Numbered from the stretch's first letter, positions 7,062 through 34,996 are shown. The stretch is 64,000 nucleotides of DNA from Escherichia coli (GCF_011045215.1 NZ_CP049201.1), one strand, 5' to 3'. Numbers and translations are program-made. Notes: generated from the sequence alone by a model not told the origin.

Positions 7062-8541
7062 ATCCAACACGCTGGTCAAATTTGTGGTGCCCGTTGTTGT
7101 GGTGGTCGGGGTATTCATCGGGCTTAAAGGCTGTGGTGATCCCGCGTCGTCATCAGGCCCGTCAGCACAGCAGACACAGGTTCCGGGGACGCTGTCTCAG
7201 GAGGAGCTGAAGGCGCTGGGTGTTGAGGGTGACACGCCGGAAGACACCCTGCGCACGCTTATCGGGCGTCTCAATCAGGTACGTGAACGTCAGCAGACGC
7301 TGGACGAACAGAACAGCAAACTGCTGAAGGAGAATGAACAACTGCGTAAACGCGGAACGGATGTGTCCGGTCAGCTGAACGATGCCGTGGCAGGACTGCA
7401 GAAAAGTTATGAGGAGAAACAGCGCCAGCTGCAGAACGAGCAGAACACCCTGATGGCAAAGGTGCAGTCCCTGACGGAGCAGCTGGCGCAGCAGGGTGGC
7501 ACCAGTAAGGCAAATACTGACAGCGATATTCCCCTCGGGCTGGGGCTTGACGGACTGAGTGGTTCTCCGGGAAGCGCGGTGTCACAGGGGGCCGATGGCC
7601 TGATGTGGGTGACGCCGGCTGACCAGTCACAGCCTGACCCACGGGATGTGGCAGGGGGTAAAAGTGGTCCCCGTTTCCCCACCTCCTTTCTGGATGATAA
7701 CCCGCTGACCCGTCAGAAGGCGGCGTATGAACAGCAGGTGAAGGGATACAGTAACGAGAAACAACAGGCCACCACACAGGCCGTCTACACCCTGCCGGAG
7801 AATGCCACCCTGGTCGGGAGCCGGGCAATGACGGCCCTGCTGGGGCGGGTGCCGGTCAACGGCACGGTGACAGACCCTTATCCGTTCAAGGTGCTTATCG
7901 GTAAGGACAACCTGACTGCCAACGGCATTGAACTGCCGGATGTGGAAGGGGCCGTGGTGTCCGGTACCGCCAGTGGTGACTGGACGCTCTCCTGTGTGCG
8001 GGGCCAGGTGAACAGTATCACCTTTGTGTTTGCTGACGGGCGGGTTCGCACGCTGCCGGCACCGGATGTGAACGGCACCACCAACAGCAATCAGCAGACG
8101 AAGAACGGGAATAACACCGGCGGCATTGGCTGGATTTCGGATGAGGATGGCATTCCGTGTATCAGTGGCACCCGTAAGTCCAATGCTGCCACATACCTGC
8201 CCACCATTTTCGGTCTGTCTGCCGCGGGGGCGGCCGGTGAGGCCCTGAGTCAGGGGCAGTACACCACGCAGAATAACGTCAACGGCCTTTCTTCTGCGCT
8301 GACCGGGAGTGCCGGGGAGGCGGCACTGGGTAAGGCGATTTCCGGCGGAATGAATGAGACAGCAGAGTGGGTGAAGCAGCGTTACGGGCAGACGTTTGAT
8401 GCCATTTATGTGCCACCGGGAAAAAGGCTGGCCGTTCACATCACCCGCCAGCTGGCGATTGATTACGAAGACCAGGGCCGTAAGGTGCGTTATGACTTCA
8501 CCCTGCCGGGAGAGGCGGACACACAGGGTGGTCTGGACTGA
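7051..8541 (+). CDS. ICE T4SS protein with TM anchor and coiled coil (VirB10/TraB-like, tentative)
   Basis: GTG start with RBS GGGGAGGTG; N-terminal TM segment, heptad-rich region (residues ~60-140), Gly/Thr-rich C-terminal domain. Confidence 0.6.
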   Translation: MQIKSNTLVKFVVPVVVVVGVFIGLKGCGDPASSSGPSAQQTQVPGTLSQEELKALGVEGDTPEDTLRTLIGRLNQVRERQQTLDEQNSKLLKENEQLRKRGTDVSGQLNDAVAGLQKSYEEKQRQLQNEQNTLMAKVQSLTEQLAQQGGTSKANTDSDIPLGLGLDGLSGSPGSAVSQGADGLMWVTPADQSQPDPRDVAGGKSGPRFPTSFLDDNPLTRQKAAYEQQVKGYSNEKQQATTQAVYTLPENATLVGSRAMTALLGRVPVNGTVTDPYPFKVLIGKDNLTANGIELPDVEGAVVSGTASGDWTLSCVRGQVNSITFVFADGRVRTLPAPDVNGTTNSNQQTKNGNNTGGIGWISDEDGIPCISGTRKSNAATYLPTIFGLSAAGAAGEALSQGQYTTQNNVNGLSSALTGSAGEAALGKAISGGMNETAEWVKQRYGQTFDAIYVPPGKRLAVHITRQLAIDYEDQGRKVRYDFTLPGEADTQGGLD

Positions 8542-16837: not shown

Positions 16838-17165
16838 ACGTAACGCCCGTCAGCGTCTGAAAGCGGTGCTGCTCACAGGCGGTATCCTGCTGGCATTTAT
16901 GGTGGTGGCGCTGTTCATTGCGGATGTGGCCATTCGTCATCCTGAAGGGACAGCTACGTTCAGTTCGTGGATGCGGGCTCACCGTTCTGGCTGGCTGCTC
17001 TGGCGTCTGTGCATTTATATCCTGCTGGGCTGGGGTATCTGGCGTATCGTGCATGCGCCGGGGTTCCGGGCGGAATACCGCCAGCCGTTGATGCGTATCT
17101 GTTGCGCCAGTGTGGCGTTTATTCTGGTCTGTGAATATGCGCTGCTGAAGGCGCAGGGAGGCTGA
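16824..17165 (+). CDS. ICE membrane protein (113 aa)
   Basis: ATG overlaps the upstream stop; multiple hydrophobic helices. Confidence 0.5.
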   Translation: MKMNKRNARQRLKAVLLTGGILLAFMVVALFIADVAIRHPEGTATFSSWMRAHRSGWLLWRLCIYILLGWGIWRIVHAPGFRAEYRQPLMRICCASVAFILVCEYALLKAQGG

Positions 17166-18754
17166 TGATGACAACAAACAGCTATCTTGAATATTTTCTG
17201 ACCCTGCTGGGCTGGCTGATTAATAACGGCCTGTGGGATGTGCTGCTGGGGACCGGGTTGTTTGCACTGCCGCTGGTATTTAAGGTGATTGGGATTTGGC
17301 TGCGGGTCAGGGAAGAAGGGGAGGATGAGGGGAATAAGGGACTTCTCTCGCTGCCCCGTATTGAACATGCACTGTACATGGGTTTTTTTGTGATTATCAG
17401 TTGCTGCGTGCCGCTGGTTAATGTCAGTCTGGGGACTATTGAGTATGACGGCAGTCGTGCAAAGCAGTGCGGAACATGGACGCCGAAGGCACCGGATAAG
17501 ACCGGGTATGCAGGTGTGATTTCCAGTATGGACGGTAAAACGGCGCAGATCCCGCTGTGGTGGCTGATGGTGCACAAACTTTCAAAAGGGGTGACTCAGG
17601 CCGCAGTGGCATCCATTCCCTGTACACCGGATATGCGACAGATGCGTTTTGAGGTTCAGCATACCCGGATCAACAATAAGGCACTGATTGAAGAGCTGCA
17701 GGATTTTACCAATGACTGCTACTCACTGGCGCTGTACAGCTGGAAGCACCAGGATCAGGGAATGACAACGGATAAAAATACGCTGCGGGATATTGAGTGG
17801 ATTGGCAGCAGGACATTTCAGTCGCGTTATTACAATGAACTGCAGTCGAAGATGCCGAGAAGTGCGTTTCCGTGGAATGCATCCCGTGACAGTGGACGCC
17901 CAAACACCGGTCGGGGTGGTTACCCGACCTGTAATGAGTGGTGGAGTGAGGCGGATGTCGGGCTGAAAAGTCGGGTGATGAAGCAGGCTGACCCCGGTAT
18001 GTGGCTGCGTCTGTCAGCAACAATGAAAATGATCGGGAATACAGGCAAGGAGTATGAAGAAGCGGTGATACGCCGTCTGGTCAGTCCGGTGAATATGACA
18101 GTGTCACATGGTGGCAGAGCCTATGCCGGTTATGGCGGGAATGCGGATTTGTCGCTGGATAATGCGGTGACCCGCGTGTTCTCAACGGGGGGCGTGGCGC
18201 TGGGGAGTCTGGCGGCGTTTCCGGCCCTGGATGCGATGCGACAGGCATTACCCATGGTACAGGGGATCCTGTTGATGGCTATTTACGTGATGTTACCGCT
18301 GATTCTGGCGTTTGCGGCGTACGAGATAAAGACGGTGATTACACTGACGTTTGTGATTTTTGCGACTAATTTCCTGACGTTCTGGTGGGAGCTGGCACGA
18401 TGGCTGGATTCATGGATGTTTACAGCGCTGTACAGTTCGGGAACACACAGCCGTTTCAATATGGCAGGGTTTCAGAATACCTCAGATGACCTGATTATGA
18501 ATCTGGTGATGGGCAGTATGTTCCTGATTCTGCCAGCGGTCTGGATGGGGGCATTATCTTGGGCCGGGGTGTATATTGGAGGAGCGATGACTCAAAGTAT
18601 GGGAGATGGCACCAGACAAGCTCAGGCATCAGGAGGCAGTGCTGTTAATATGTTGCAGGATGCTGGGTTGCGGGGGATGTCTGGGGGCACGTCAGCAGGC
18701 TCAACAGGCCAAACAGTAGGCTCGGTAGGTCAAAAATTGAATAAGCAAAAATAA
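17165..18754 (+). CDS. TraG N-terminal-domain-like polytopic membrane protein (mating-pair stabilisation-like)
   Basis: Start overlaps previous stop; 529 aa with several TM segments and a Gly/Ser-rich C-terminus; last gene of the T4SS block. Confidence 0.6.
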   Translation: MMTTNSYLEYFLTLLGWLINNGLWDVLLGTGLFALPLVFKVIGIWLRVREEGEDEGNKGLLSLPRIEHALYMGFFVIISCCVPLVNVSLGTIEYDGSRAKQCGTWTPKAPDKTGYAGVISSMDGKTAQIPLWWLMVHKLSKGVTQAAVASIPCTPDMRQMRFEVQHTRINNKALIEELQDFTNDCYSLALYSWKHQDQGMTTDKNTLRDIEWIGSRTFQSRYYNELQSKMPRSAFPWNASRDSGRPNTGRGGYPTCNEWWSEADVGLKSRVMKQADPGMWLRLSATMKMIGNTGKEYEEAVIRRLVSPVNMTVSHGGRAYAGYGGNADLSLDNAVTRVFSTGGVALGSLAAFPALDAMRQALPMVQGILLMAIYVMLPLILAFAAYEIKTVITLTFVIFATNFLTFWWELARWLDSWMFTALYSSGTHSRFNMAGFQNTSDDLIMNLVMGSMFLILPAVWMGALSWAGVYIGGAMTQSMGDGTRQAQASGGSAVNMLQDAGLRGMSGGTSAGSTGQTVGSVGQKLNKQK

Positions 18755-18823: not shown

Positions 18824-19231
18824 TTAATTTCCATCGCGCTCCCATTGTTCTCTCCATATAGGACGCTCCCATTCTTCTCTCCATATAGGACGCTTCCATT
18901 GTTCTCCTTCGTACTCAAAATTCAAGTCATGCCTCTTTTCAAGACTATCACATTGTGTATTAAATCCGGCACCAACACATCGAAGAATGTATGCAACAGC
19001 CCATGTAAACGCCAGACACCCGAGAACTGCCGTGATACTGAAGAGTGCACAAACCACAATTCCGGTTAATCCAATAGCCAGCGGAAGCCGTCCAGTCCAG
19101 GCTGGCAGATGCCTTTTTCTGGCCGCATGAATCCAGAAGTTGTCCCACCGACGAAGCGTTCTTACGAGTCGTTTCCACTGAATGGCAAACCGTTGTCCTC
19201 TGAGATAAGCGGCTTTGTTAGTCGTTTTCAT
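18824..19231 (-). CDS. Membrane protein (135 aa) with a C-terminal W/R-rich tandem repeat
   Basis: Two hydrophobic helices; C-terminus EQWKRPIWREEWERPIWREQWER is encoded by the 27-bp tandem DNA repeat. Confidence 0.45.
   Translation of the reverse strand: MKTTNKAAYLRGQRFAIQWKRLVRTLRRWDNFWIHAARKRHLPAWTGRLPLAIGLTGIVVCALFSITAVLGCLAFTWAVAYILRCVGAGFNTQCDSLEKRHDLNFEYEGEQWKRPIWREEWERPIWREQWERDGN
18838..18907. repeat. Tandem 27-bp repeat (about 2.6 copies)
   Basis: Seen directly: GCTCCCATTGTTCTCTCCATATAGGAC followed by GCTCCCATTCTTCTCTCCATATAGGAC and a partial third unit. Confidence 0.8.
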
Positions 19232-19357: not shown

Positions 19358-19921
19358 ATGTTGAGTAAAAAATTGTTATTGGTTTGTGTTTCATGCCTGG
19401 CGTTAACTGCCTGTTCTGTTGATGAAATTGCTTCGGTTAACAAGCAAATTAGTGATGGTGCTTTTGCTTTAACGGGGGCATTGCGTGGAAACTCATCGTC
19501 TGCGGATTCAAATGGAATGCCGGTTTTAAGTCAGGCGCAAAAACCGGCGACAAAATCCAGAACGCAGGAATATTCAGTACCCGTTGATGTTGATACAGCT
19601 GCTGCTCGCCTTAAACGTTATTACGAGTTTATATCTTTCGATGAAATTGAAGCTATCCGCAAAAAAAACACCAGTGGGGAATGGGCGGCATCAGCAATAC
19701 TTGAACAGAACCCTGTATGGGAGGTTATGCCCGGTAGTTATTATAAAATGGGTCAAAACTGGGACGATTATGATCATCTGACTATTGAAGTGGAAAAGAA
19801 TGGGGCGGGAAGTAAATTATATATTACGTTTAAATCGCCATCGGATAAAAGACTGAATAGTGAAAGTCTCAGGAAACTGATGTTGAATATTAAAGATGTT
19901 GCTGAAGGGAAAATTCGTTAA
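19358..19921 (+). CDS. Lipoprotein of unknown function (187 aa)
   Basis: RBS AGGAGG 8 nt upstream; lipobox LTAC at the end of the signal peptide; AT-rich gene. Confidence 0.6.
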   Translation: MLSKKLLLVCVSCLALTACSVDEIASVNKQISDGAFALTGALRGNSSSADSNGMPVLSQAQKPATKSRTQEYSVPVDVDTAAARLKRYYEFISFDEIEAIRKKNTSGEWAASAILEQNPVWEVMPGSYYKMGQNWDDYDHLTIEVEKNGAGSKLYITFKSPSDKRLNSESLRKLMLNIKDVAEGKIR

Positions 19922-19941
19922 TTGATGATGAGATCGTGTTT

Positions 19942-20070
19942 ATGTTAAAGAAAATTGTGCTCGGATTGTTAATTGTTGCGCTGGTCGCTTTTTCTTTTGA
20001 TTTTGGTCGGCGGTGGGAGCTGTCTAAAACAGCAGAATATTGTTCTTCAATTGGCAAAAAAAATATCTGA
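19942..20070 (+). CDS. Possible small hydrophobic peptide (42 aa)
   Basis: Short ORF MLKKIVLGLLIVALVAFSFDFGRRWELSKTAEYCSSIGKKNI, below the ORF-track cutoff; coding status uncertain. Confidence 0.25.
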   Translation: MLKKIVLGLLIVALVAFSFDFGRRWELSKTAEYCSSIGKKNI

Positions 20071-20127
20071 TGCTGGTCCCGCATATTGCGTCGAAAAGTA
20101 ATCTGTAAATGGAGATGGTTTGATTTT

Positions 20128-20772
20128 ATGGACTATATTGTTATTTTCGTAGTAGGTTTTTTTATCGGTCTTGTATATGGTAGCGGTAAAAAATATGTAA
20201 AAGATAAACATGTGAGTTATTACCGTGAAAATCGTAATAACGATTTCCAGAAAGCAAATAGTAATATTGAAAAATATGAAAGAGATAATAAGGTATACAG
20301 AAATCCCCGCTGGGAGGGAAAAGATGAAATATTCTGGGGGATGATGAATTCGCAAATTTGCCTTGAAAGAAAACGTGGGCCATATTTATGCACTGATCCT
20401 GAAAATAAGTATTTGTTGAAATTAACTGAGTGGTTTGGTGACATTTGTTACATAAATTGTCAGGTGTCTTTAGGGCAATTGGTTGATTTTAAGGCTAAAA
20501 ATAATAAGCAATTTACTGAGGAGGAAAGAAGGCGGTTTTTTAGTATCTATGCTTCGATGGCAATGGATTATGTACTTGTGTACAAAAAAACAAAAAGAAT
20601 TGTTTGTGTCATAGAGCTTAATGATGGTTCACATAATAAAGAGGAACGAATCGAACGAGACAGAAAAGTTGCTGAGTTATTGAAACGTTGCGATATTTCA
20701 TTTCTCCCGGTGTCTATTGATAAAATGGATATTAAACCCGACATATGGAAAGACAGGGGAAATAGAGAATAA
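20128..20772 (+). CDS. Membrane-anchored protein with a Vsr/DUF559/DUF2726-like endonuclease-fold domain
   Basis: N-terminal TM helix (MDYIVIFVVGFFIGLVYG); C-terminal motifs LVDF ... VCVIELNDGSH ... RDRKVAELLKRCDISFL match the recalled VDF / IE(V)DG..H / D..R...L pattern of that fold. Very AT-rich. Confidence 0.5.
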   Translation: MDYIVIFVVGFFIGLVYGSGKKYVKDKHVSYYRENRNNDFQKANSNIEKYERDNKVYRNPRWEGKDEIFWGMMNSQICLERKRGPYLCTDPENKYLLKLTEWFGDICYINCQVSLGQLVDFKAKNNKQFTEEERRRFFSIYASMAMDYVLVYKKTKRIVCVIELNDGSHNKEERIERDRKVAELLKRCDISFLPVSIDKMDIKPDIWKDRGNRE

Positions 20773-20917
20773 ATAATTAATTTGTATCTACAGAATATTA
20801 ATGCTCAGGCTGGTTAACCCCGGCCTTTTTATTTTATATACAGACGTTCCTGTGAGACTATTGACATATAAAAGCCCGTCTTGCTAATCTTTTCCCGCTT
20901 TAATGTCGCTGTATGCG

Positions 20918-21102
20918 ACCATCCAAATCCCCAGTAGTCTGAGAGGGGAGCCTTCGGGCGGCTACCAGCCAATGCTTTAACGATCTGAGAGAAGCGCCTT
21001 CGGGTGATCGTAATGTTCTCGTAGCCTGGAAGAGAACGCCTTACGTGGCGGTACATCCGTTTAACCTCTGGGAACGGATATCACGGAACCGTGATTGAGG
21101 TC
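20918..21102 (+). repeat. Copy A of a ~185-bp structured direct repeat (four predicted hairpins, two with CUUCGG loops)
   Basis: Seen directly: about 88% identical to 23232..23416; contains GAGCC-UUCG-GGC and GCGCC-UUCG-GGUG hairpins plus a 7-bp stem ATCCGTT/AACGGAT. Confidence 0.8.
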
Positions 21103-21232: not shown

Positions 21233-21517
21233 TTAATCTGTTCGGGCATTCGCCCCGGGCTTCTTACGACTGTACGCACTGCATAAGGCCATCTGAAATC
21301 TGGCCGCTTGCGTGCGTATGTGGAGTTTGAAGCTGCGCGGCGTCACTTTTGTCGGCGTGTAACGATGACAAAGTGACGCATGCGCGTCTGCTTTACGAAC
21401 CCGCACAAACCGTCGCGTCACGGGATGTTTTTTAACATTTGAAGAAGTGACCAGACGTGAGAGTGTTTTTTCAACCTTCTCTGCAAACGTACAGACGATA
21501 CCGTGAATAACGTTCAT
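21233..21517 (-). CDS. Hypothetical ORF (94 aa), possibly a gene remnant
   Basis: ORF between repeat A and the recombinase; overlaps a second ORF (21061..21279) in another frame, which could indicate a frameshifted pseudogene. Confidence 0.2.
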   Translation of the reverse strand: MNVIHGIVCTFAEKVEKTLSRLVTSSNVKKHPVTRRFVRVRKADAHASLCHRYTPTKVTPRSFKLHIRTQAARFQMALCSAYSRKKPGANARTD

Positions 21518-21762
21518 CGACCGTTCTTCTTGCAGAATTTTATTGTTTTTTAAGGAGTTTTATGTAGTGAGATGCCGAACCGGCGATACCACTTATTAGG
21601 GGTGGTATCGGGGGCGACCTGGAAACAGGTACAGCGAATGCTGCAGTCGGTGTGCAACACCGGTTTGTTACCCCTCAATACCTAAACAGTCTGCGCTACC
21701 CTGGCGCTCAGGCACTCATTACCCGAAGGATCGCAACGCTTAACCGTGTCGCCAGGGAGAAT

Positions 21763-21850: not shown

Positions 21851-22753
21851 GTGTCCAGACGTGAAAAATTACTGAAACAGGATTTGGTTGCTCATATCCG
21901 GAAAGACCGGGGGAGTTTCAAGAAGCTGAGTGACTATTCCCGGATCATGCACCGGTTTGCGGAAAGACTGGCTAAACTGAATATACAGATCAGTTCTGCT
22001 GCGCAGGTAAAAGTGCGGCATATTGAATTATATATGAACAGCAGGAGTGATGTTTCAAAGCGAACCAGAGAAAATGAAATGTCTGCAATACGGGTTATGT
22101 TACGTCAGGCCGGTAAACATAAAATGGCAGATCCTGAACATCCCCGTCTCAGCAATAAGGCGTTAGGTATTTCAGGAGGAAGCCGTAAAGGGACAAAGAA
22201 ATTAATTACGGATGAGCGTTTCCGGGAAATTCTTCAGCGCGTGGAAGCAAAAGATAAAGGGGTGGCAGCTGTTGTTAAACTGTCACGTTATCTCGGTCTG
22301 AGAAATGAAGAAGCTGTCCAGTCGGCCAAATCGTTACGGACGTGGAAAAAAGCGTTACAACGGGGAGATGAAAAAATAAGGGTGATTTTTGGTACGAAAG
22401 GGGGACGGGAAAGAATGACGACGGTTGTTGACCGGGATAAAGTTCTTGATGCTGTTAATTACGCACTCAAATATGCCAGTGAGCATAATGAACGTCTGAT
22501 AGACAGAGATAATCTTAAGTCGGCAATGGATTATTATCTTAATACGTTACGACGTTATGGAGAACTGAAAGGCGGAGATGAAACCGCACACAGTTTTCGG
22601 TACAGTTACGCCGCAAGTGCCATGAAATATCATATTATGAATGGTTACAGTTATAAGGAGGCACTTGCACTGACATCAATTGATCTTGGTCATGGTGATG
22701 GCAGAGGTCGATATATTGAACAGGTTTATTGTCAGTTATTAGGCTATGAGTAA
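21851..22753 (+). CDS. Tyrosine site-specific recombinase (phage-integrase family), 300 aa
   Basis: GTG start after RBS GAGGAGG; C-terminal catalytic-like motifs AHSFRYSYAA (H-x-x-R), LGHGDGRG and RYIEQVY (candidate nucleophilic Tyr). Confidence 0.75.
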   Translation: MSRREKLLKQDLVAHIRKDRGSFKKLSDYSRIMHRFAERLAKLNIQISSAAQVKVRHIELYMNSRSDVSKRTRENEMSAIRVMLRQAGKHKMADPEHPRLSNKALGISGGSRKGTKKLITDERFREILQRVEAKDKGVAAVVKLSRYLGLRNEEAVQSAKSLRTWKKALQRGDEKIRVIFGTKGGRERMTTVVDRDKVLDAVNYALKYASEHNERLIDRDNLKSAMDYYLNTLRRYGELKGGDETAHSFRYSYAASAMKYHIMNGYSYKEALALTSIDLGHGDGRGRYIEQVYCQLLGYE

Positions 22754-23109: not shown

Positions 23110-23155
23110 CTTGACATCCATCTTTTGTGCCTTAAAAATATACAGGCTAACTTTG

Positions 23156-23416
23156 TTACCTTCGGGTGACCATCCAATGTTTCGGTAGTCTGAGAGAAAC
23201 GCCTTCGGGTGACTACAGTTATCTTCGGATAACCATCCAAATCCCCGGTAGTCTGAGAGGGGAGCCTTCGGGCGACTACCAGCCAATGCTTTGACGATCT
23301 GAGAAAAGCGCCTTCGGGTGATCGTAATGTCTCCGTAGCCTGAAAGGGGACGCCTTAGAGGGTGGTACATCCGTTTAACCTCTGGAAACGGATATCACGG
23401 AACAGTGATCGAGGTC
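23156..23416 (+). repeat. Copy B of the ~185-bp structured direct repeat (23232..23416) plus an extra partial unit (23156..23231)
   Basis: Seen directly: aligns with 20918..21102 over its full length with scattered substitutions; the upstream partial duplication repeats the CCATCCAA...GGTAGTCTGAGAG...GCCTTCGGGTG unit. Confidence 0.8.
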
Positions 23417-28504: not shown

Positions 28505-28752
28505 TTTTTTATCACTACGCCAGTCTTCGGGCTGGCGTTATTATATTTGCGTTGCTTGTTATTGGGGGCGGTTTCTATGTACGTCAGGAGCATTTTTAAA
28601 CCGATGTGGATAAGTAACTGATTGATTCATCGTGATCAGCTATCGCTTCTAAGTTATTGCTTTTCTCTTATCGCATTTAGGTTATCTCATGTCCCTAAAG
28701 GTCTGCCAAACACCGTATAGCGTGGGAGTACACCCTACCGCGATAACGTAAC

Positions 28753-28768
28753 CGTACAATATTGTACG
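28753..28768. promoter_or_regulatory. 16-bp perfect palindrome CGTACAATATTGTACG (candidate operator) about 95 bp upstream of the hydrolase gene
   Basis: Seen directly in the intergenic region 28505..28863. Confidence 0.4.
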
Positions 28769-28863
28769 TTTCCCAAACGCAGCTCTGTGGGGGAAATTTG
28801 GGTTAAGTATCGACCGGTGTATGATAGGGCAATATTTAACCAGAGAAATTAAAAGGATTTGTT

Positions 28864-31089
28864 ATGTCTAAGCCGGAAAACGGCCAACAGCTGCCCGCCA
28901 TCTGTTGGCCGGTGCCTAAAAATAACCGGGGCGGGGAGTTCAGTAATCTCGAGGAGATGTTGGCGCATCTGGAGGGCGAGGCCACCGGGCACTGGCTGAT
29001 TGGCCGTAATGGTATGTGGCACGGGGGAATTCATATCACGGATATCACGACTCCGTGGTGTGCGCTCAGCGGTCAGTCGATGAATGAGGCGGTGGATTTT
29101 CCTGTGCCGTTTAAGGGAGAGCAGCCCGTGCGCTGCATGGCGGATGGTGAGGTGGTGGCGTACCGGATAAACCGGGATTCTCTCAGCGTGCCGTGGTACT
29201 GGGGGGATTTACACTACTCCGGGTCTTTTGTACTCATTCGCCATCGTATTCAGCCAGGGGAAACGGCAGAGAGCGGGCTGACCTTTTACACCCTGTATAT
29301 GCACCTCGCGCCCTGGCTGGCTTACCCGGAGCAGGACAGTACGGCGTTTAAGGTCGCAGACAGACAGTATCTGAATGCGTATGCGGACGCGTCCCGGCAG
29401 TGGGTGGTGGCAGAGTTGCCACCCGGTACACGTGTGATATGGGACAAAGCGGTAAGTGCAGACACCATGACAGGGAGCAACGGTCGGCAGTATGCGCGCG
29501 TTACGCTGGCGGAGCCGGTGACGGGCAGGATGAACCTGAACGCCGGAGACCGGGTATGGACAGTATGCGATAAAGGGAATCTGGTTCCGGTTCGTGACAG
29601 TATCATCCGTCCGGCGTGGTGGTCGCCGTTCCTGCCGCCGTCACGCGAAACGGTACAGTTTGATACGGTGGTGTGTCCGACACCTTACCCGATTAAAGCC
29701 GGTGCCCCGGTGGGGCATCTGGGCTATTTTCAGGTACCCACGGATAACGGGCATGAAAAACGCTATCAGGTGCATATCGAATGCCTGACAACGGACGACC
29801 TGCCGCGCTTCCTGAGCAACCCGGAAGGTGTGGGGCGTGACACTCCCGCCTTTGCCCGTTGTCCGAAGGATATACCGGTGTATCTGAAATATACGGACGG
29901 AGAAATACACAAGAGCCTGGTAACCACGGAGAGCGAAACGGTGATGGCGCTGTCAGGTCAGGTGGTGACGGACAAAGAGGGTAAACGCTACTGGTCGGGG
30001 GGAGGGGTATCACGCGGACTGCTGGCGGAGTCAGATGTGCAGTTGTTATCCAGGTATGACCTGGCTGACCGGGGTTTTGAGGCCACGGAGGATAACCCGG
30101 TGAGCTTTGACCATCTCGACGGAAAGAGACAGCCGAAGGGGCTGGTGAGGACGATTTTTGAGCGTTTTTTCAACGTGGCGGATAATGACGGTAAGCTCTA
30201 CAGCAAAATAGTGGCATTCAACTACCGGCAGCTGCTGGACCAGATTGATGACGCCAAATCCCCCCGGTATAACCCGGAACTGTACCGGCGCGCGGTACAG
30301 AACCCGTCAATGCGTGAGCATCTGTATCGTTTGTGCGTGAAACATCCCAGCGAGTGGTATTACTCGTCGGAGTCTTCGGTATGGAAAGCATTTTTTACGC
30401 CCCAACTGAAAAGAGACGCCACGGAGTGGTACGCCTACAGTATGAAATTTTTGACGGATCTCCGCTGGATGTACCGTGTGGCCGGAATGGTGGAAAATCC
30501 GTGGCATATGCACCCACTGGTATTTCTTGATGCTATTAATGATATAGGTATGACTCTCGATGAAGCCAGAGTTCGGGCATTTATGAGAATGATTCGAGTT
30601 GGCGAAGGGACTGTTGGTGAGGTTGGGTATGAAACATTGTTTGGTAAGCAGTCATTCATAAAAGATTATCATAAAGATTTTAGTGATCACCCGAACATAA
30701 TAATTACTAGAGGTACATTAAAGTCTTCTGCGGCTGGAGCATATCAAGTAATGGGTTATACATGGAATGATCCTAACATGTTGTTTTATCGCAAAAAATA
30801 TGGGATCGTGGATTTTTCTCCGAAATCACAAGATGAGTTTTGTGTGCTAATCCTTAAATATAAAAGGAAAGGGGCTTTAAAACTTATCATTGATGGTGAC
30901 ATTGATGGGGCTTTAGATATTTTGAGTTACGAATGGGCAAGTCTTCCCCCTGCCAGATACCCTCAACCAACCAAGAGTAAGAGTGAGGTTATGTCCTTAT
31001 ACAATAAGTATTTATTAGAAGAGCTCTTAGGGGAGACAGATCTTCACCTGCCAATCGGCTACATAAAACAAGTTTATAATGGTGTGTAA
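28864..31089 (+). CDS. Multidomain cell-wall hydrolase-like protein (741 aa) with C-terminal lambda-lysozyme-like (GH104-type lytic transglycosylase) domain
   Basis: C-terminal residues ~570-741 align by eye with recalled phage lambda R motifs (VGEGT..GYETLF, DFSDHP, AAGAYQVMGYTW, DFSPKSQDEF, KGALKLIIDGDIDGAL, EWASLP). N-terminal region has an M23-like H-x-G motif (WHGGIHITD), unconfirmed. GC drops sharply near 30540. Confidence 0.7.
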   Translation: MSKPENGQQLPAICWPVPKNNRGGEFSNLEEMLAHLEGEATGHWLIGRNGMWHGGIHITDITTPWCALSGQSMNEAVDFPVPFKGEQPVRCMADGEVVAYRINRDSLSVPWYWGDLHYSGSFVLIRHRIQPGETAESGLTFYTLYMHLAPWLAYPEQDSTAFKVADRQYLNAYADASRQWVVAELPPGTRVIWDKAVSADTMTGSNGRQYARVTLAEPVTGRMNLNAGDRVWTVCDKGNLVPVRDSIIRPAWWSPFLPPSRETVQFDTVVCPTPYPIKAGAPVGHLGYFQVPTDNGHEKRYQVHIECLTTDDLPRFLSNPEGVGRDTPAFARCPKDIPVYLKYTDGEIHKSLVTTESETVMALSGQVVTDKEGKRYWSGGGVSRGLLAESDVQLLSRYDLADRGFEATEDNPVSFDHLDGKRQPKGLVRTIFERFFNVADNDGKLYSKIVAFNYRQLLDQIDDAKSPRYNPELYRRAVQNPSMREHLYRLCVKHPSEWYYSSESSVWKAFFTPQLKRDATEWYAYSMKFLTDLRWMYRVAGMVENPWHMHPLVFLDAINDIGMTLDEARVRAFMRMIRVGEGTVGEVGYETLFGKQSFIKDYHKDFSDHPNIIITRGTLKSSAAGAYQVMGYTWNDPNMLFYRKKYGIVDFSPKSQDEFCVLILKYKRKGALKLIIDGDIDGALDILSYEWASLPPARYPQPTKSKSEVMSLYNKYLLEELLGETDLHLPIGYIKQVYNGV

Positions 31090-31527
31090 ATGAAAAATAT
31101 ATTCCTTATATTGATATTTGTATCATCATTTACTTATGCTGGTTCTGATTTTGGAACTTGGGGAACATCATGTGATGATAATGGGTTCATTCTTTCATTA
31201 AAAGAAGATTCATCTCCATTTGTTGTTAGTGATAATCAGATAGTTGTATCCATACATTCAAGAAGGATTAACCATAAAGTTATTGATGTTTTTTTTGATG
31301 ATACATTAGATCTTGGGATAGGAGGCATGGGGTTTAACTGGGGGGATGTTGATAAAACCAAAAAAATAGCCGAGTTAACATATTCTGAAAATAATAAATG
31401 GCTGATGAAATGGTTTGGTTTTTGGGATGCAAAAAAAAAGACACGTTTTTGGGTGAAAGAGCCTGATTTTATCCAAACATACGCAAAAAATAACGTCATA
31501 ACATTGATTAAATGCGAAGAACAGTGA
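31090..31527 (+). CDS. Secreted small protein (145 aa), candidate immunity protein for the upstream hydrolase
   Basis: ATG directly after the upstream stop (TAAATG); signal peptide MKNIFLILIFVSSFTYA; AT-rich like the hydrolase C-terminus. Confidence 0.5.
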   Translation: MKNIFLILIFVSSFTYAGSDFGTWGTSCDDNGFILSLKEDSSPFVVSDNQIVVSIHSRRINHKVIDVFFDDTLDLGIGGMGFNWGDVDKTKKIAELTYSENNKWLMKWFGFWDAKKKTRFWVKEPDFIQTYAKNNVITLIKCEEQ

Positions 31528-31582
31528 TGGTTTGACTGCAATGGCTAAATTGAGGCAGCAATAATTTCAGGAAAACAAAAAT

Positions 31583-31760
31583 GATCTTCTTGAGATCCTT
31601 TTTTCTGAGAGTAGTTTCTTGTCCTGTAAATGAAAAAACGCCGGAAGGCGGGTTGGTTCGGGTTCGTTGATCTACCAAATCTTTGAAGCTGGGCGGTAAC
31701 AGGACTCTATGTGGGAGACAGTTACCAATACATTATAGTACTTCCCAGTAATCTGCTGAT
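31583..31760. other. Remnant resembling a ColE1/p15A-type plasmid origin (RNA I/RNA II region)
   Basis: GATCTTCTTGAGATCC, CTGTAAATGAAAAAACGCCGGAAGGCGGG and GATCTACCAAATCTTTGAAGCTGGGCGGTAACAGG parallel recalled p15A/pBR322 ori strings in the same order; diverged, not verified by alignment. Confidence 0.4.
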
Positions 31761-31849
31761 CAGACCGGGCCAGCCAGAGATGCAGGTCGGTGATGATCAA
31801 CCGTCGTATACGAATCTGTATGGTGTTGAGCTGCTGTCCCGATTTAGTA

Positions 31850-32590
31850 TCAGACTGGATGTAGTGAATCTGTTTTTCCGGACGAGCATTTCATGGTGAA
31901 TTGTCGTGGTGTTATATTAAAGTGTTGTCTGAAAAGATAGACAAAGTAGGATGTACTGGAATAGCCACATTTTTCAGCAACGTGTTTCACTGAGTATTTC
32001 TGTTCCAGTAAGTTTCTGGCTGAAAACATTCGTACTTCGAGTAAAATTTTACTGAAACATGTGTTTTCAGACAGAAGTTTTTTCTTTATCAGACTTTCAC
32101 TCATATATACATATTCAGATATATCGCGCAACTTCCATTGTCGTGATATATCTGACAGTAATATGTTTCGTACTTTTCCTGAAAAAGTTGGGATGCCAGA
32201 TGAAAGGAAGTTTATTAAAGCGGGGCGGGTATTAAAAATTGACAATAACGAGAAACAGACAGCTTCTCTGAATTCCGGATGGATATGATTTTCATAATTT
32301 ATATTGTTTATGAGTTCTGACAACACTTCCGGGTAGGCAAAACATTTTTTCAGAAAATGAACAGGCCCGTCGTAGGTTGGTTTTTCCCCTGTATGGCGAT
32401 GGTGTATATAATGGTTTACTGTATCTTCATTCAGAGGTACTTCAGTGAATTTATCTGAAAATGTAAGAAAGCTTGTCATCAAAGATGGATTAACAAGAAG
32501 AATATCGCCATAATTTAATATTAATACATCATTAAAAAAACGGAAATTAAATGATCTTTTTATCAGTATGAAGGAGCAGATGATAGTCAT
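31850..32590 (-). CDS. AraC-family transcriptional regulator, AppY/EnvY-like
   Basis: C-terminal HTH region (ERQWKLRDISEYVYMSESLIKKKL ... VAEKCGYSSTSYFVYLFRQHFNITP) closely parallels recalled E. coli AppY ([24 protein letters not shown] ... [25 protein letters not shown]). AT-rich. Confidence 0.7.
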   Translation of the reverse strand: MTIICSFILIKRSFNFRFFNDVLILNYGDILLVNPSLMTSFLTFSDKFTEVPLNEDTVNHYIHHRHTGEKPTYDGPVHFLKKCFAYPEVLSELINNINYENHIHPEFREAVCFSLLSIFNTRPALINFLSSGIPTFSGKVRNILLSDISRQWKLRDISEYVYMSESLIKKKLLSENTCFSKILLEVRMFSARNLLEQKYSVKHVAEKCGYSSTSYFVYLFRQHFNITPRQFTMKCSSGKTDSLHPV

Positions 32591-32873
32591 AATTCTTTGC
32601 GCTGTTACAGTTTTTTATTTATGTAAGTATGGATGAAGGGAAAAAAAAGGAAAAATATTTTGTTTTTTTGTGATTGCTGTCACGTAATAAATAAAAAGCA
32701 ATTGATTATATTGCTGTATTGTGCTGTAAAGAAGAGTTAAGCTCTGTCTGGTACTGATTTATTCCGGGGGACGGAGGGGCATGGCAGATGAAGGGATGAA
32801 CAGGGACTTTTTGTTTAATTCGTTGACAGCAACAGTCATAAGAGAAAGCAACAATTCACATATGGGGCAGTTT

Positions 32874-33569
32874 ATGAAAACTATCTTCATAGCAGAGCCT
32901 GTCGTGACGGCAGGTAACAGTAACAGGCTGATTGCGGTGGAGATTCTGAGCCGATTTTATTCTGTTAACGGAAAACAACTTCCTACCGTGAAAACGCTGA
33001 ATATGTTTACAGCAGAGATGAAAATTGATTTGCTGGAATTACAGATAAGAAAAATAATAAGTAAAGCTTCTTTTTTTAGTAAGCATAATATACTGTGTTC
33101 CCTTAACGTCGATTATGATACATGTCAGTATATATACAGAAATAAAAATATTCAGGATATAATAAAGTCATATGATTTTATTGTTCTTGAAATTTCTGAA
33201 ACATACCCGGTCATAAAGGCTGATGATGCAATAATTCCTTTTCTCATTAATCTGTCAGAACATATCTGGCTGGATGATTTAGGGAGTGGTAACAGTACAA
33301 TACATACGTTGATAAGAAATAAATTCCAGGCAGTGAAACTTGACAAAAATTTTTTTCAAATACATAGTATGAAACCGCATTTTGCTGCATTAATAGACAA
33401 TATAAAAAGATTATGCCCTCTGGTTATTGCCGAGGGTGTTGAAAACAAGAATTATCTGCATGCTGCTTCAGGTGCTGGTTTATGGGGCGTTCAGGGATAT
33501 TATTTTCCATCAGTACCGCTTGAGGATATTCATCAGATAAAGTTGGATTTTTCTGAGAACATCAGCTGA
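32874..33569 (+). CDS. EAL-domain protein, YdiV-like (degenerate EAL; EIL instead of EAL)
   Basis: EAL-domain motifs (EILSRF, DDLGSGNST, KLDK, AEGVE, QGYYF); DDLGSGNSTIHTLIRNKFQAVKLDKNFFQ parallels recalled YdiV LGAGNSTMKAVFDGLFTRVMLDKSFIQ. Start chosen at ATG 32874; ORF-track start is 32781. Confidence 0.65.
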   Translation: MKTIFIAEPVVTAGNSNRLIAVEILSRFYSVNGKQLPTVKTLNMFTAEMKIDLLELQIRKIISKASFFSKHNILCSLNVDYDTCQYIYRNKNIQDIIKSYDFIVLEISETYPVIKADDAIIPFLINLSEHIWLDDLGSGNSTIHTLIRNKFQAVKLDKNFFQIHSMKPHFAALIDNIKRLCPLVIAEGVENKNYLHAASGAGLWGVQGYYFPSVPLEDIHQIKLDFSENIS

Positions 33570-33803
33570 TGAGTCTGTCATACTTTTTCTTCCCGGGTAT
33601 ATCCGGGCTGTGTTTAAATATAATAGTCATAAGAAAACTGGTTATTATATTTTCAGGTGAATTTGTTTACATGTTCTGATCGGGACTCGCTTTCAGATTG
33701 CAGGGAGTAATAAAAAGTACTATCACTGCGTATTCCGTTCTACTCTATCACGGATTGGCCCAAACTGTGTCGATTCAGATGCCATTTTGCACTATCACTT
33801 ATT

Positions 33804-34538
33804 ATGAGCTGTTTTTGTATTCATTTTAGCAGCCATCTCCATGATGGTATTGACAGTGGCTGTCCCGGTAAGAAATATGATATACACCGACCATTAAATA
33901 TGCTGGCGTTAAGCTGGCATAATACTTCTGGTCGCTATTCACTGGGGGGAAGTTATCAGAAAGATGATTCCGTGCAAATTTTAGGGGAATTAAATAAAAA
34001 ATTTAAGATCCGTGAAAGAGATTCTGCGAAAAGTCAGTTAAAATTTTTCTACGCTGAACTTGAGGGTTTTAATAAAGAAAAAAAGAGAAGGGCTGGGGAA
34101 CCTGATGATACCTATCTCCTTTCCGGACAGATATCATTTAATACACCTGATTTTGGAGCATTTGTCAGTGCGGGATATATTAATCATGCAATATCAGGAA
34201 CAAATGTAGATACCGATCGTTCTTATGTATATTCTCTGAGTATAGATCGTAATAAAGAACAAATGTACTCTTTTTAGACAGGATTTACATATAACATCAC
34301 ACCAGAATTAAGTGCAATGATGACCCATGGTTATGAATCCAGTCGTAAAGATGTAGAAATACAGGGGGCATGTATTTTGGGAGCAATGACTTACAATATC
34401 AATAATGGACCTAATATATTTCTTTCTGCAGACAGATGCAGAGAAAAAAGAGATGGCAGCCGTTTTGGTGATCGTCTTAATTATTGGGATGTTAAATTAA
34501 GTATTAGGTATGATATATATATATATGATTCTCTGTAA
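33804..34538 (+). pseudogene. Interrupted ORF: two same-frame ORFs separated by a single in-frame TAG at 34278-34280; no signal peptide
   Basis: Seen directly: 33804..34277 and 34317..34538 are in the same frame and read through apart from one amber codon; alternating hydrophobic pattern suggests a beta-barrel protein remnant. Confidence 0.35.
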
Positions 34539-34996
34539 AGAGGCAGATGCTGAATCCATTCACCCTGTAGTCCATGATTTCGAATCTGGTAGGGTGTATT
34601 TATAACTGACAATATAATGAGGTAGTTCCGGTTTCTCTTGTGTTTATAAATTTCTCATGTCTTTGTTAAGCAACTGTTTGTATTATTCTGATTGACTTAT
34701 TTTCACTGGTGTTAAGACCACAGGTATTGTCAGTATTCGAACAGTATTTCACGAAATTCTTATACAGTATTGCACGGTTTTCCGGACGTTTAAACTTCAA
34801 ATGGTTAAACTGGCTTCACAACAGGAGCTTCTGTTGTCTGTATTGTTCGAAAATACGGGGATACCGTATTTTCTGAGTTATATTATACAATCTTGTTTTA
34901 TAAAATACCCCTGTGCGAATGAACACACAGGGGTATTTTATATTTCAGTTTTTCACCATAGAGTATGAACAGATTGCAAATATAATCCCGACAATA

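Follow-up and report, generated by a model that had tools for sequence, protein, structure and literature searches.

In a stretch of 64,000 nucleotides (nt) from Escherichia coli (GCF_011045215.1, NZ_CP049201.1), here called the window, we found a gene that joins an N-terminal transmembrane (TM) helix to a domain of the family DUF2726. A structure model assigns a restriction-endonuclease fold to this domain, which is predicted to be tethered to the cytoplasmic side of the inner membrane. Sequence comparisons place the gene in a replaceable cassette within a cargo hotspot of an integrative conjugative element (ICE) of the PFGI-1 class, in which related elements carry known defence genes. Our best guess, which we hold tentatively, is that the protein could be a membrane-tethered DNase that acts on DNA entering the cell and forms a one-gene defence module. 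The gene itself is already annotated in databases, since E. coli loci with 98.9% and 95.3% identity carry the RefSeq label "DUF2726 domain-containing protein", and it adds one member to a family that is known but uncharacterised. It is therefore ordinary as an annotation, and the modestly interesting part is the hypothesis at the level of the family.

Gene, domain and membrane anchor

The gene and its parts have the following positions in the window:

20128..20772, plus strand: TM-DUF2726 gene, 214 amino acids (aa), predicted membrane-anchored restriction-endonuclease-fold protein (open reading frame (ORF), Pfam PF10881, start codon support, and ratio of nonsynonymous to synonymous divergence (dN/dS))
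20131..20181, plus strand: codons of the N-terminal TM helix, residues 2-18 (hydrophobicity, helix in the AlphaFold2 model)
20182..20319, plus strand: codons of a disordered K/N/Y/R-rich linker, residues 19-64, poorly conserved (predicted local distance difference test score (pLDDT) 47-61, no secondary structure, variable in the alignment)
20320..20727, plus strand: codons of the globular DUF2726 domain, residues 65-200
20807..20826, plus strand: GC-rich hairpin that resembles a terminator, with a T-run after it, 35 nt past the stop codon (consensus scan only)

The only in-frame alternative start upstream of the ATG at 20128 is a TTG at 20086. We consider the ATG to be the true start because in the close allele of E. 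coli RM8082 an in-frame TAG, three codons ahead of the ATG, cuts off the TTG, and because six homologous loci (L004, L005, L006, L097, L098, L102) showed no alternative start upstream. In 11 of the 13 loci examined the N-terminus runs from M-D/E straight into hydrophobic residues. With this start, the protein has no positively charged n-region of a signal peptide. Comparison with two E. coli alleles gave a dN/dS of 0.20-0.27, which indicates purifying selection on a functional coding sequence.

A Pfam scan matched residues 87-200 to DUF2726 (E=5e-17, 62.3 bits, model positions 4-113 of 126). At E<=10 the only other match listed was a spurious one to AEP_C962R, with neither Vsr (PF03852) nor DUF559 (PF04480) in the list, and sequence and profile searches of the PDB returned no Vsr or DUF559 chain. 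In an alignment of 140 diverse family members eight residues were at least 90% conserved, namely E92, D147, E163, D166, H169, R174, R177 and D178. The motif consists of D147, followed by E163-L-N-D166-G-S-H169 and then by R174 and E176-R177-D178. An AlphaFold2 model built on the same alignment (mean pLDDT 85.6) showed a TM helix at residues 2-18, a disordered linker of about 45 aa (residues 19-64), and a globular domain from residue 65 onwards. This domain has an alpha-beta-beta-beta-alpha-beta core in which the first helix bears E92 and strands 2 and 3 bear D147 and E163, respectively, which is the core topology and the arrangement of acidic residues of a restriction-endonuclease-like fold. 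The structures closest to the modelled domain were Vsr, I-Bth0305I, TnsA and DUF559. On the strength of the model we assign the C-terminal domain to the restriction-endonuclease (PD-(D/E)xK, Vsr-like) fold, and the modelled likeness to Vsr and DUF559 is structural only. From these two and from the catalytic domain of I-Bth0305I the protein differs by the lack of a match to the Vsr and DUF559 hidden Markov models, by its membrane anchor and by its motif spacing; unlike for Vsr and I-Bth0305I, there is also no adjacent Dcm methylase and no intron context. With the Pfam family DUF2726 it shares the residues E...D...E-x-x-D-x-x-H...R-x-x-R-D, the N-terminal TM architecture and the association with mobile elements.

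A preliminary description of this locus had proposed a membrane-anchored protein with a Vsr/DUF2726-like nuclease fold in an AT-rich islet, and had named a Pfam search as one way to check it. The Pfam match to a nuclease-like family, the hydrophobic helix and the model bear out the architecture. The islet was also confirmed by a GC content of 0.335 for the gene and 0.404 for a nearby lipoprotein gene, versus 0.525 for traG and 0.508 for the window. The motif named there is present, but its spacing is E-x-x-D-G-x-H and not E-x-D-G-x-x-H as had been written.

Residues 2-18 have a mean Kyte-Doolittle hydrophobicity of 2.28 over 17 aa and are helical in the model. Only the residues MDY precede the helix and KKYVKDKH follow it. 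We surveyed the charges around the helix in 104 family members that have an N-terminal helix and a length of 130-260 aa. On average, 4.2 K/R were counted in the 15 residues past the helix (net charge +3.0) and 0.25 in the residues ahead of it (net charge -0.3), and K/R were more numerous after than before the helix in 98% of these proteins. Following the positive-inside rule, we predict that the N-terminus lies outside and that the inner membrane holds the nuclease-fold domain on its cytoplasmic side. All this describes a protein that crosses the inner membrane once, in which a short N-terminus and a single TM helix are followed by a flexible linker of about 45 aa.

The cassette, its hotspot and relatives on other elements

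The following features surround the gene (homologous loci are given by L numbers):

17165..18754, plus strand: TraG_N (VirB6-like) gene, which closes the type IV secretion cluster and borders the hotspot on the left (RefSeq at the homologous locus; 70-73% identity to sister TraG_N)
18824..19231, minus strand: small membrane protein gene, backbone, fast evolving (in L004, L006, L009, L013 and many of L017-L096)
19358..19921, plus strand: lipoprotein gene, 187 aa, an independent cargo cassette
about 19943-20101, plus strand: small TM ORF
20102..20860: replaceable cassette of about 760 bp, AT-rich, with the DUF2726 gene and the terminator-like hairpin (blastn breakpoints against L016 and L002)
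20904..21057, plus strand: STAXI motif (RF01728), right border of the hotspot (109.7 bits, gathering score 40.5)
21564..21721, plus strand: EFASI motif (RF02957), between STAXI and the integrase-domain gene (55 bits, gathering score 51.2)
21851..22753, plus strand: gene with Phage_int_SAM_2 and Integrase_1 domains, backbone (Pfam E=1.6e-53 and 9.3e-23)
23154-23279, plus strand: second STAXI motif (85.8 bits)

In blastn comparisons the homology of E. coli strains ACN002 and 401651 to the window ended at 20092/20101 and restarted at 20861, with an unrelated segment of about 510 bp in between (L002 6886-7401; L016 4409-4918). Because of this exact swap we regard the DUF2726 gene as a discrete replaceable cassette, with its docking site at that end of the hotspot which is proximal to STAXI. 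STAXI starts 132 nt past the DUF2726 stop codon, and 130-190 nt past it in L004, L006, L009, L013, L037 and L081. The segment of about 510 bp encodes on the minus strand a protein of about 100-130 aa, whose sequence includes a TM segment and a CxxC...CxxC zinc ribbon. Its ORF is damaged in both strains, being truncated in one and frameshifted in the other.

Diverged ICEs encoded DUF2726 homologues with 31-57% identity in the same position. The order TraG_N, small minus-strand gene, variable genes, DUF2726, STAXI, EFASI and Integrase_1 was seen in Dickeya (L004), in metagenome contigs (L006/7), in Salmonella (L008) and in L009-L011 and L013-L015. Divergence of the DUF2726 protein from that of the window (47-54% identity) matched that of its neighbours (TraG 70-73%, integrase 53-60%, lipoprotein 57-58%), and the GC content of the gene stayed low (0.34-0.38) in all diverged ICE homologues. 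The conserved position first suggested a backbone gene. We therefore scanned species-representative genomes with traG as an anchor, obtained 80 enterobacterial ICE loci and searched all their ORFs with the family profile. The gene was found in only 2 of 80 loci, intact in Pectobacterium brasiliense (L037) and frameshifted in Proteus mirabilis ATCC 29906 (L081), a count that may be too low since long insertions could push the STAXI-proximal end past the 7-kb flank. When only loci with 3 kb or more of sequence past traG were counted, the figure was 2/60, and for loci with an integrase gene within 7 kb it was 2/20. This rarity spoke against a backbone gene.

The distance from traG to the integrase gene ranges from 1.3 to 6.6 kb, and PADLOC detected several defence systems in the slot of sister ICEs: IetA/IetS (L024 9410-12866), a PD-T4-3-like GIY-YIG gene (L039 8634-9440) and PDC-S64 (L046 9864-10865). 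Among the loci with a DUF2726 gene, Abi_2 is encoded directly upstream of it in L009-L011 (L009 6836-7885), MazE/PIN lies in the slot of L004 (6626-7269), and an ORF pair that we read from the sequence as PemK/MazF-like lies in the slot of L037 (3598-4256). By its gene content, the slot is a hotspot of PFGI-1-class enterobacterial ICEs for defence, toxin-antitoxin and miscellaneous cargo. The preliminary description had taken the gene for mobile-element cargo, and its replaceability, its presence in 2 of 80 related ICEs and the known defence genes found elsewhere in the slot all agree with this.

A further suggestion was that the AT-rich lipoprotein gene at 19358..19921 had arrived together with the DUF2726 gene, and this found no support. 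Each of the two occurs alone: lipoprotein genes with no DUF2726 gene beside them were seen in 8 of 80 ICE loci, in E. coli ACN002 and in E. coli 401651, where the gene carries an internal stop, and DUF2726 occurs without the lipoprotein in L004, L009-L011, L013 and L037. The breakpoint at 20101/20102 separates the two, and their synonymous divergence from RM8082 is unequal (0.12 vs 0.22). These comparisons indicate that the lipoprotein gene is an independent cassette. Its product has a lipobox LTA-C19 with Ser at +2 and no Pfam match; its homologues are 57-59% identical and occur in ICEs with or without DUF2726.

A profile search across 1.84 billion cluster representatives (50%-identity clusters) returned 4,424 DUF2726 relatives at E<=1e-3. 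Of 158 retrieved family members, 112 have a hydrophobic helix that falls within the first 40 residues, so the membrane-anchored form is the usual architecture of the family and no special fusion, a point missed in the preliminary description. Only 13 representatives matched at E<=1e-30. They form a narrow enterobacterial subfamily with 31-57% identity that is tied to the one position in PFGI-1-class ICEs, with two members located outside ICEs, one in Erwinia beside a VgrG/Rhs/SymE island and one at a chromosomal locus of Xenorhabdus.

More distant relatives are encoded on conjugative plasmids. On an IncI-type contig the relative P0031 lies between an ExcA-family exclusion gene (PF27689) and a gene with a DotM_C domain (TrbA-like), next to a Phd/ParE pair; the setting is traY-side genes, ExcA-family gene, DUF2726 and trbA. 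P0031-like genes were found in 2,618 plasmid records, 2,257 of which are predicted to be conjugative. Both IncF plasmids that we examined have the order finO, ANR-family regulator, thermonuclease, hha, DUF2726 and repA2, and their DUF2726 protein has 196 aa with a TM helix at the start. These IncF and IncI-type genes are beyond the reach of tblastn with the window protein and were found only via P0031. They share its architecture, its conserved residues and the position at the edge of a transfer operon, and differ in their backbone and, in the IncF records examined, in having a fixed position:

L102 5860-6450: plasmid TM-DUF2726 gene
L103 5833-6423: plasmid TM-DUF2726 gene
L097 7001-7630: plasmid TM-DUF2726 gene

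The gene of the distant member P0057 lies in an island with a type III restriction-modification system, where only 4 nt separate its end from a downstream GmrSD gene for type IV restriction. Further relatives were found on small Vibrio mobile elements and in the record of phage Vaf1. DUF2726 has been listed before as a PD-(D/E)xK family of unknown function with an association with mobile elements (Steczkiewicz et al. 2012, PMC3424549), and as a restriction-endonuclease domain that other proteins carry in fusion with AbiJ N-terminal domains (PMC3710099). Elsewhere in the literature searched, the family is named only in passing.

Proposed function and alternatives

According to our best guess, the domain would probably be a metal-dependent DNase at the inner face of the membrane, which would meet DNA on its entry, either during phage injection or from a rival conjugative element. 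The tether would keep the DNase off the nucleoid and spare the chromosome, and the one-gene module would benefit the host of the ICE. An active enzyme is likely because of the eight highly conserved residues and the low dN/dS. A role in defence is suggested by association, since IetAS, PD-T4-3, PDC-S64, Abi_2 and toxin-antitoxin genes are slot neighbours and relatives lie in the island with GmrSD and the type III system and on Vibrio elements.

The mode of action would resemble that of SNIPE, with an unrelated nuclease fold. SNIPE (PD-lambda-type) combines DUF4041 with a TM helix in N-out orientation and a GIY-YIG domain in the cytoplasm. It cleaves the DNA of lambda while this is being injected and becomes toxic by chromosome cleavage upon removal of the TM helix, and it is the one demonstrated membrane-tethered anti-phage nuclease, with spatial discrimination of self and non-self (Saxton et al., bioRxiv 10.1101/2025.11.03.685801; PMC13190303). 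Like SNIPE, the window protein has a single N-terminal TM helix and a variable N-terminal region and belongs to accessory defence-type cargo, and its N-terminus is predicted to lie outside and its nuclease-fold domain to face the cytoplasm from an inner-membrane tether. Unlike SNIPE, it has a restriction-endonuclease fold instead of GIY-YIG, neither DUF4041 nor GIY-YIG in the Pfam scan, less than half the size and no PADLOC match. The likeness appears to be one of analogy and not of homology.

Several observations weigh against a defence DNase. None of the families in PADLOC-DB v2 matched the protein at E<=0.1, and the DUF4041 that SNIPE needs for binding DNA and the tape-measure protein has no counterpart in it. 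Vsr-like enzymes are nicking and repair enzymes and not bulk DNases. Both topology and catalysis are predictions only, and a literature search returned no functional study, demonstrated activity or phenotype for any DUF2726 protein. The slot also holds non-defence cargo, namely the lipoprotein gene and a pair that we read from the sequence as UmuDC-like (L020, L027). Finally, the DUF2726 copies in a Salmonella enterica assembly (L008 about 7700-8438) and in P. mirabilis ATCC 29906 (L081 9311-9846) are frameshifted, and in each the shift falls after the codons of the TM helix and before those of the domain. This points to repeated inactivation, unless the assemblies are in error, and speaks for a dispensable gene.

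At the level of the family, TM-DUF2726 proteins might even make up a large and so far unrecognised class of nucleases, minimal 'gatekeepers' encoded by one gene and tethered at the cytoplasmic face of the inner membrane, which would cut incoming phage, plasmid or ICE DNA by purely spatial discrimination of self and non-self, although we regard so broad a claim as doubtful. If true, conjugative elements would as a rule be equipped, at the edges of their transfer operons (IncF, IncI-type, PFGI-1 ICEs), with a nuclease that bars competitors and phages. Spatial self/non-self discrimination would then have a second solution, independent of SNIPE, in a very compact single-gene module for defence or competition, and a gene that recurs without annotation in IncF and IncI-type plasmids and in ICE backbones would be accounted for. 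Relatives are present on thousands of clinically relevant enterobacterial conjugative plasmids in addition to ICEs. If there is no phenotype, the gene would merely be another annotated DUF in a cargo slot.

The protein might instead be an abortive-infection toxin, a role put forward in the preliminary description and made plausible only by association. In such a toxin, tether and linker would keep a non-specific nuclease inactive or away from DNA until membrane perturbation or cleavage of the linker upon infection frees or activates it, so that host and phage DNA are degraded and the cell dies before phage release. The fold, the conserved catalytic residues and the hotspot neighbours would fit this too, and the long disordered linker could serve as a protease target. 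Abi_2 and toxin-antitoxin modules are directly beside DUF2726 in L009-L011, L004 and L037, and the fusions to AbiJ N-terminal domains (PMC3710099) point in the same direction. We nevertheless consider such a toxin unlikely, since the single-gene cassette has no conserved adjacent sensor domain or partner gene and there was no sign of regulated release, and since SNIPE, the only studied membrane-tethered defence nuclease, defends directly and not abortively.

It is less likely still that the protein is not a DNase, with a fold that binds DNA, RNA or another substrate, or with a gene that is drifting cargo without a current function. Relatives of the fold such as RAP and the Sen15 type do include non-catalytic or RNA-directed members, and the literature searched held no biochemical data for the family; yet the constellation of acidic residues and histidine is strongly conserved family-wide, and the gene is under purifying selection.

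Dedicated entry exclusion, which the preliminary description had also put forward, has lost ground in our analysis. An inner-membrane protein encoded next to the VirB6-like traG could block or cut the DNA of a related element, in the manner of TraS (F), Eex (SXT/R391) or ExcA (IncI1), which block redundant transfer and are likewise small inner-membrane proteins encoded beside their target gene of the VirB6/TraG/TraY type. In F, traS and traT come after traG, and in SXT, eex comes after traG. The gene order traG_N, small minus-strand gene, variable cargo and DUF2726 is present in the window, L004, L006, L009, L013, L037 and L081, and seven ICE lineages carry DUF2726 in the slot immediately downstream of traG_N. 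Moreover, the relative P0031 lies directly beside an ExcA-family gene, and most of the plasmid records with its relatives are predicted to be conjugative. An exclusion gene would, however, be expected in every self-transmissible member, as exclusion proteins are in every element of their family, whereas DUF2726 is found in about 3% of the related ICE loci (2/80) and also has homologues outside conjugative elements. Known exclusion proteins are without an enzymatic fold and need no nuclease catalytic residues, which are conserved here, and the protein shows no sequence similarity to TraS, Eex or ExcA (the last by Pfam scan). A better candidate for entry exclusion is the small minus-strand membrane protein after traG (18824-19231), because of its position, membrane location, ubiquity and fast divergence: it has 134-135 aa, occurs in most sister ICEs with only 28-32% identity between them, and has no Pfam or NCBIfam match. 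We judge an exclusion role of DUF2726 improbable.

Just as improbable is an accessory factor in the life cycle of the element itself, for maintenance of the plasmid or ICE or for membrane DNA processing of the transferred strand in donor or recipient (for instance trimming, nicking or resolving at the secretion channel), which would suit the recurrence where transfer operons end, on three conjugative backbones that are not related to one another (PFGI-1 ICE, IncI-type, IncF), and the location immediately upstream of the STAXI-EFASI-integrase-antirestriction region, but not a gene that is rare and replaceable within the ICE family, pseudogenised at least twice and also present in non-conjugative defence-island contexts.

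The element and minor observations

We identified the element in the window as a PFGI-1-class ICE inserted at tRNA-Phe. This is based on ICE genes of the TIGR037xx type, TraD and a conjugative ATPase, all seen at the collinear locus of E. coli 8178, and on the following features:

40534-42180: relaxase of the PFGI-1 class
42238-43230: tyrosine recombinase gene
43423-43498: tRNA-Phe gene, adjoining the end of the element

The order STAXI, EFASI, integrase gene and STAXI was kept in all nine sister loci scanned. A function in the form of single-stranded DNA has been proposed for STAXI and EFASI motifs and would agree with a leading region that is expressed early. A non-coding stretch of about 500 bp with EFASI (21259-21755) was the source of spread-sampled matches with about 78% identity, including O157:H7, O111 and O103; the STAXI/EFASI region is therefore common to other genomic islands. 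Overall, 605 E. coli records fell into the band of 60-80% identity.

The small TM-peptide ORF upstream of the cassette (19936-20101) encodes 52-54 aa in E. coli 8178, RM8082, 401651 and ACN002, and 44 aa in the window. Here it is frameshifted, with a run of eight A versus seven in strain 8178, which could be a sequencing error or homopolymer slippage. The intact ORF of strain 8178 is mislabelled by RefSeq as 'ABC transporter ATP-binding protein'.

A cargo swap of about 10 kb (28536-39008) sets the ICE of the window apart from the otherwise collinear ICE of E. coli 8178. The swapped cargo of the window encodes a YdeO/AraC-like regulator, an EAL-type phosphodiesterase and an AIDA-type autotransporter, and an ArdC-like gene is present in the ICE of strain 8178 and absent from that of the window.
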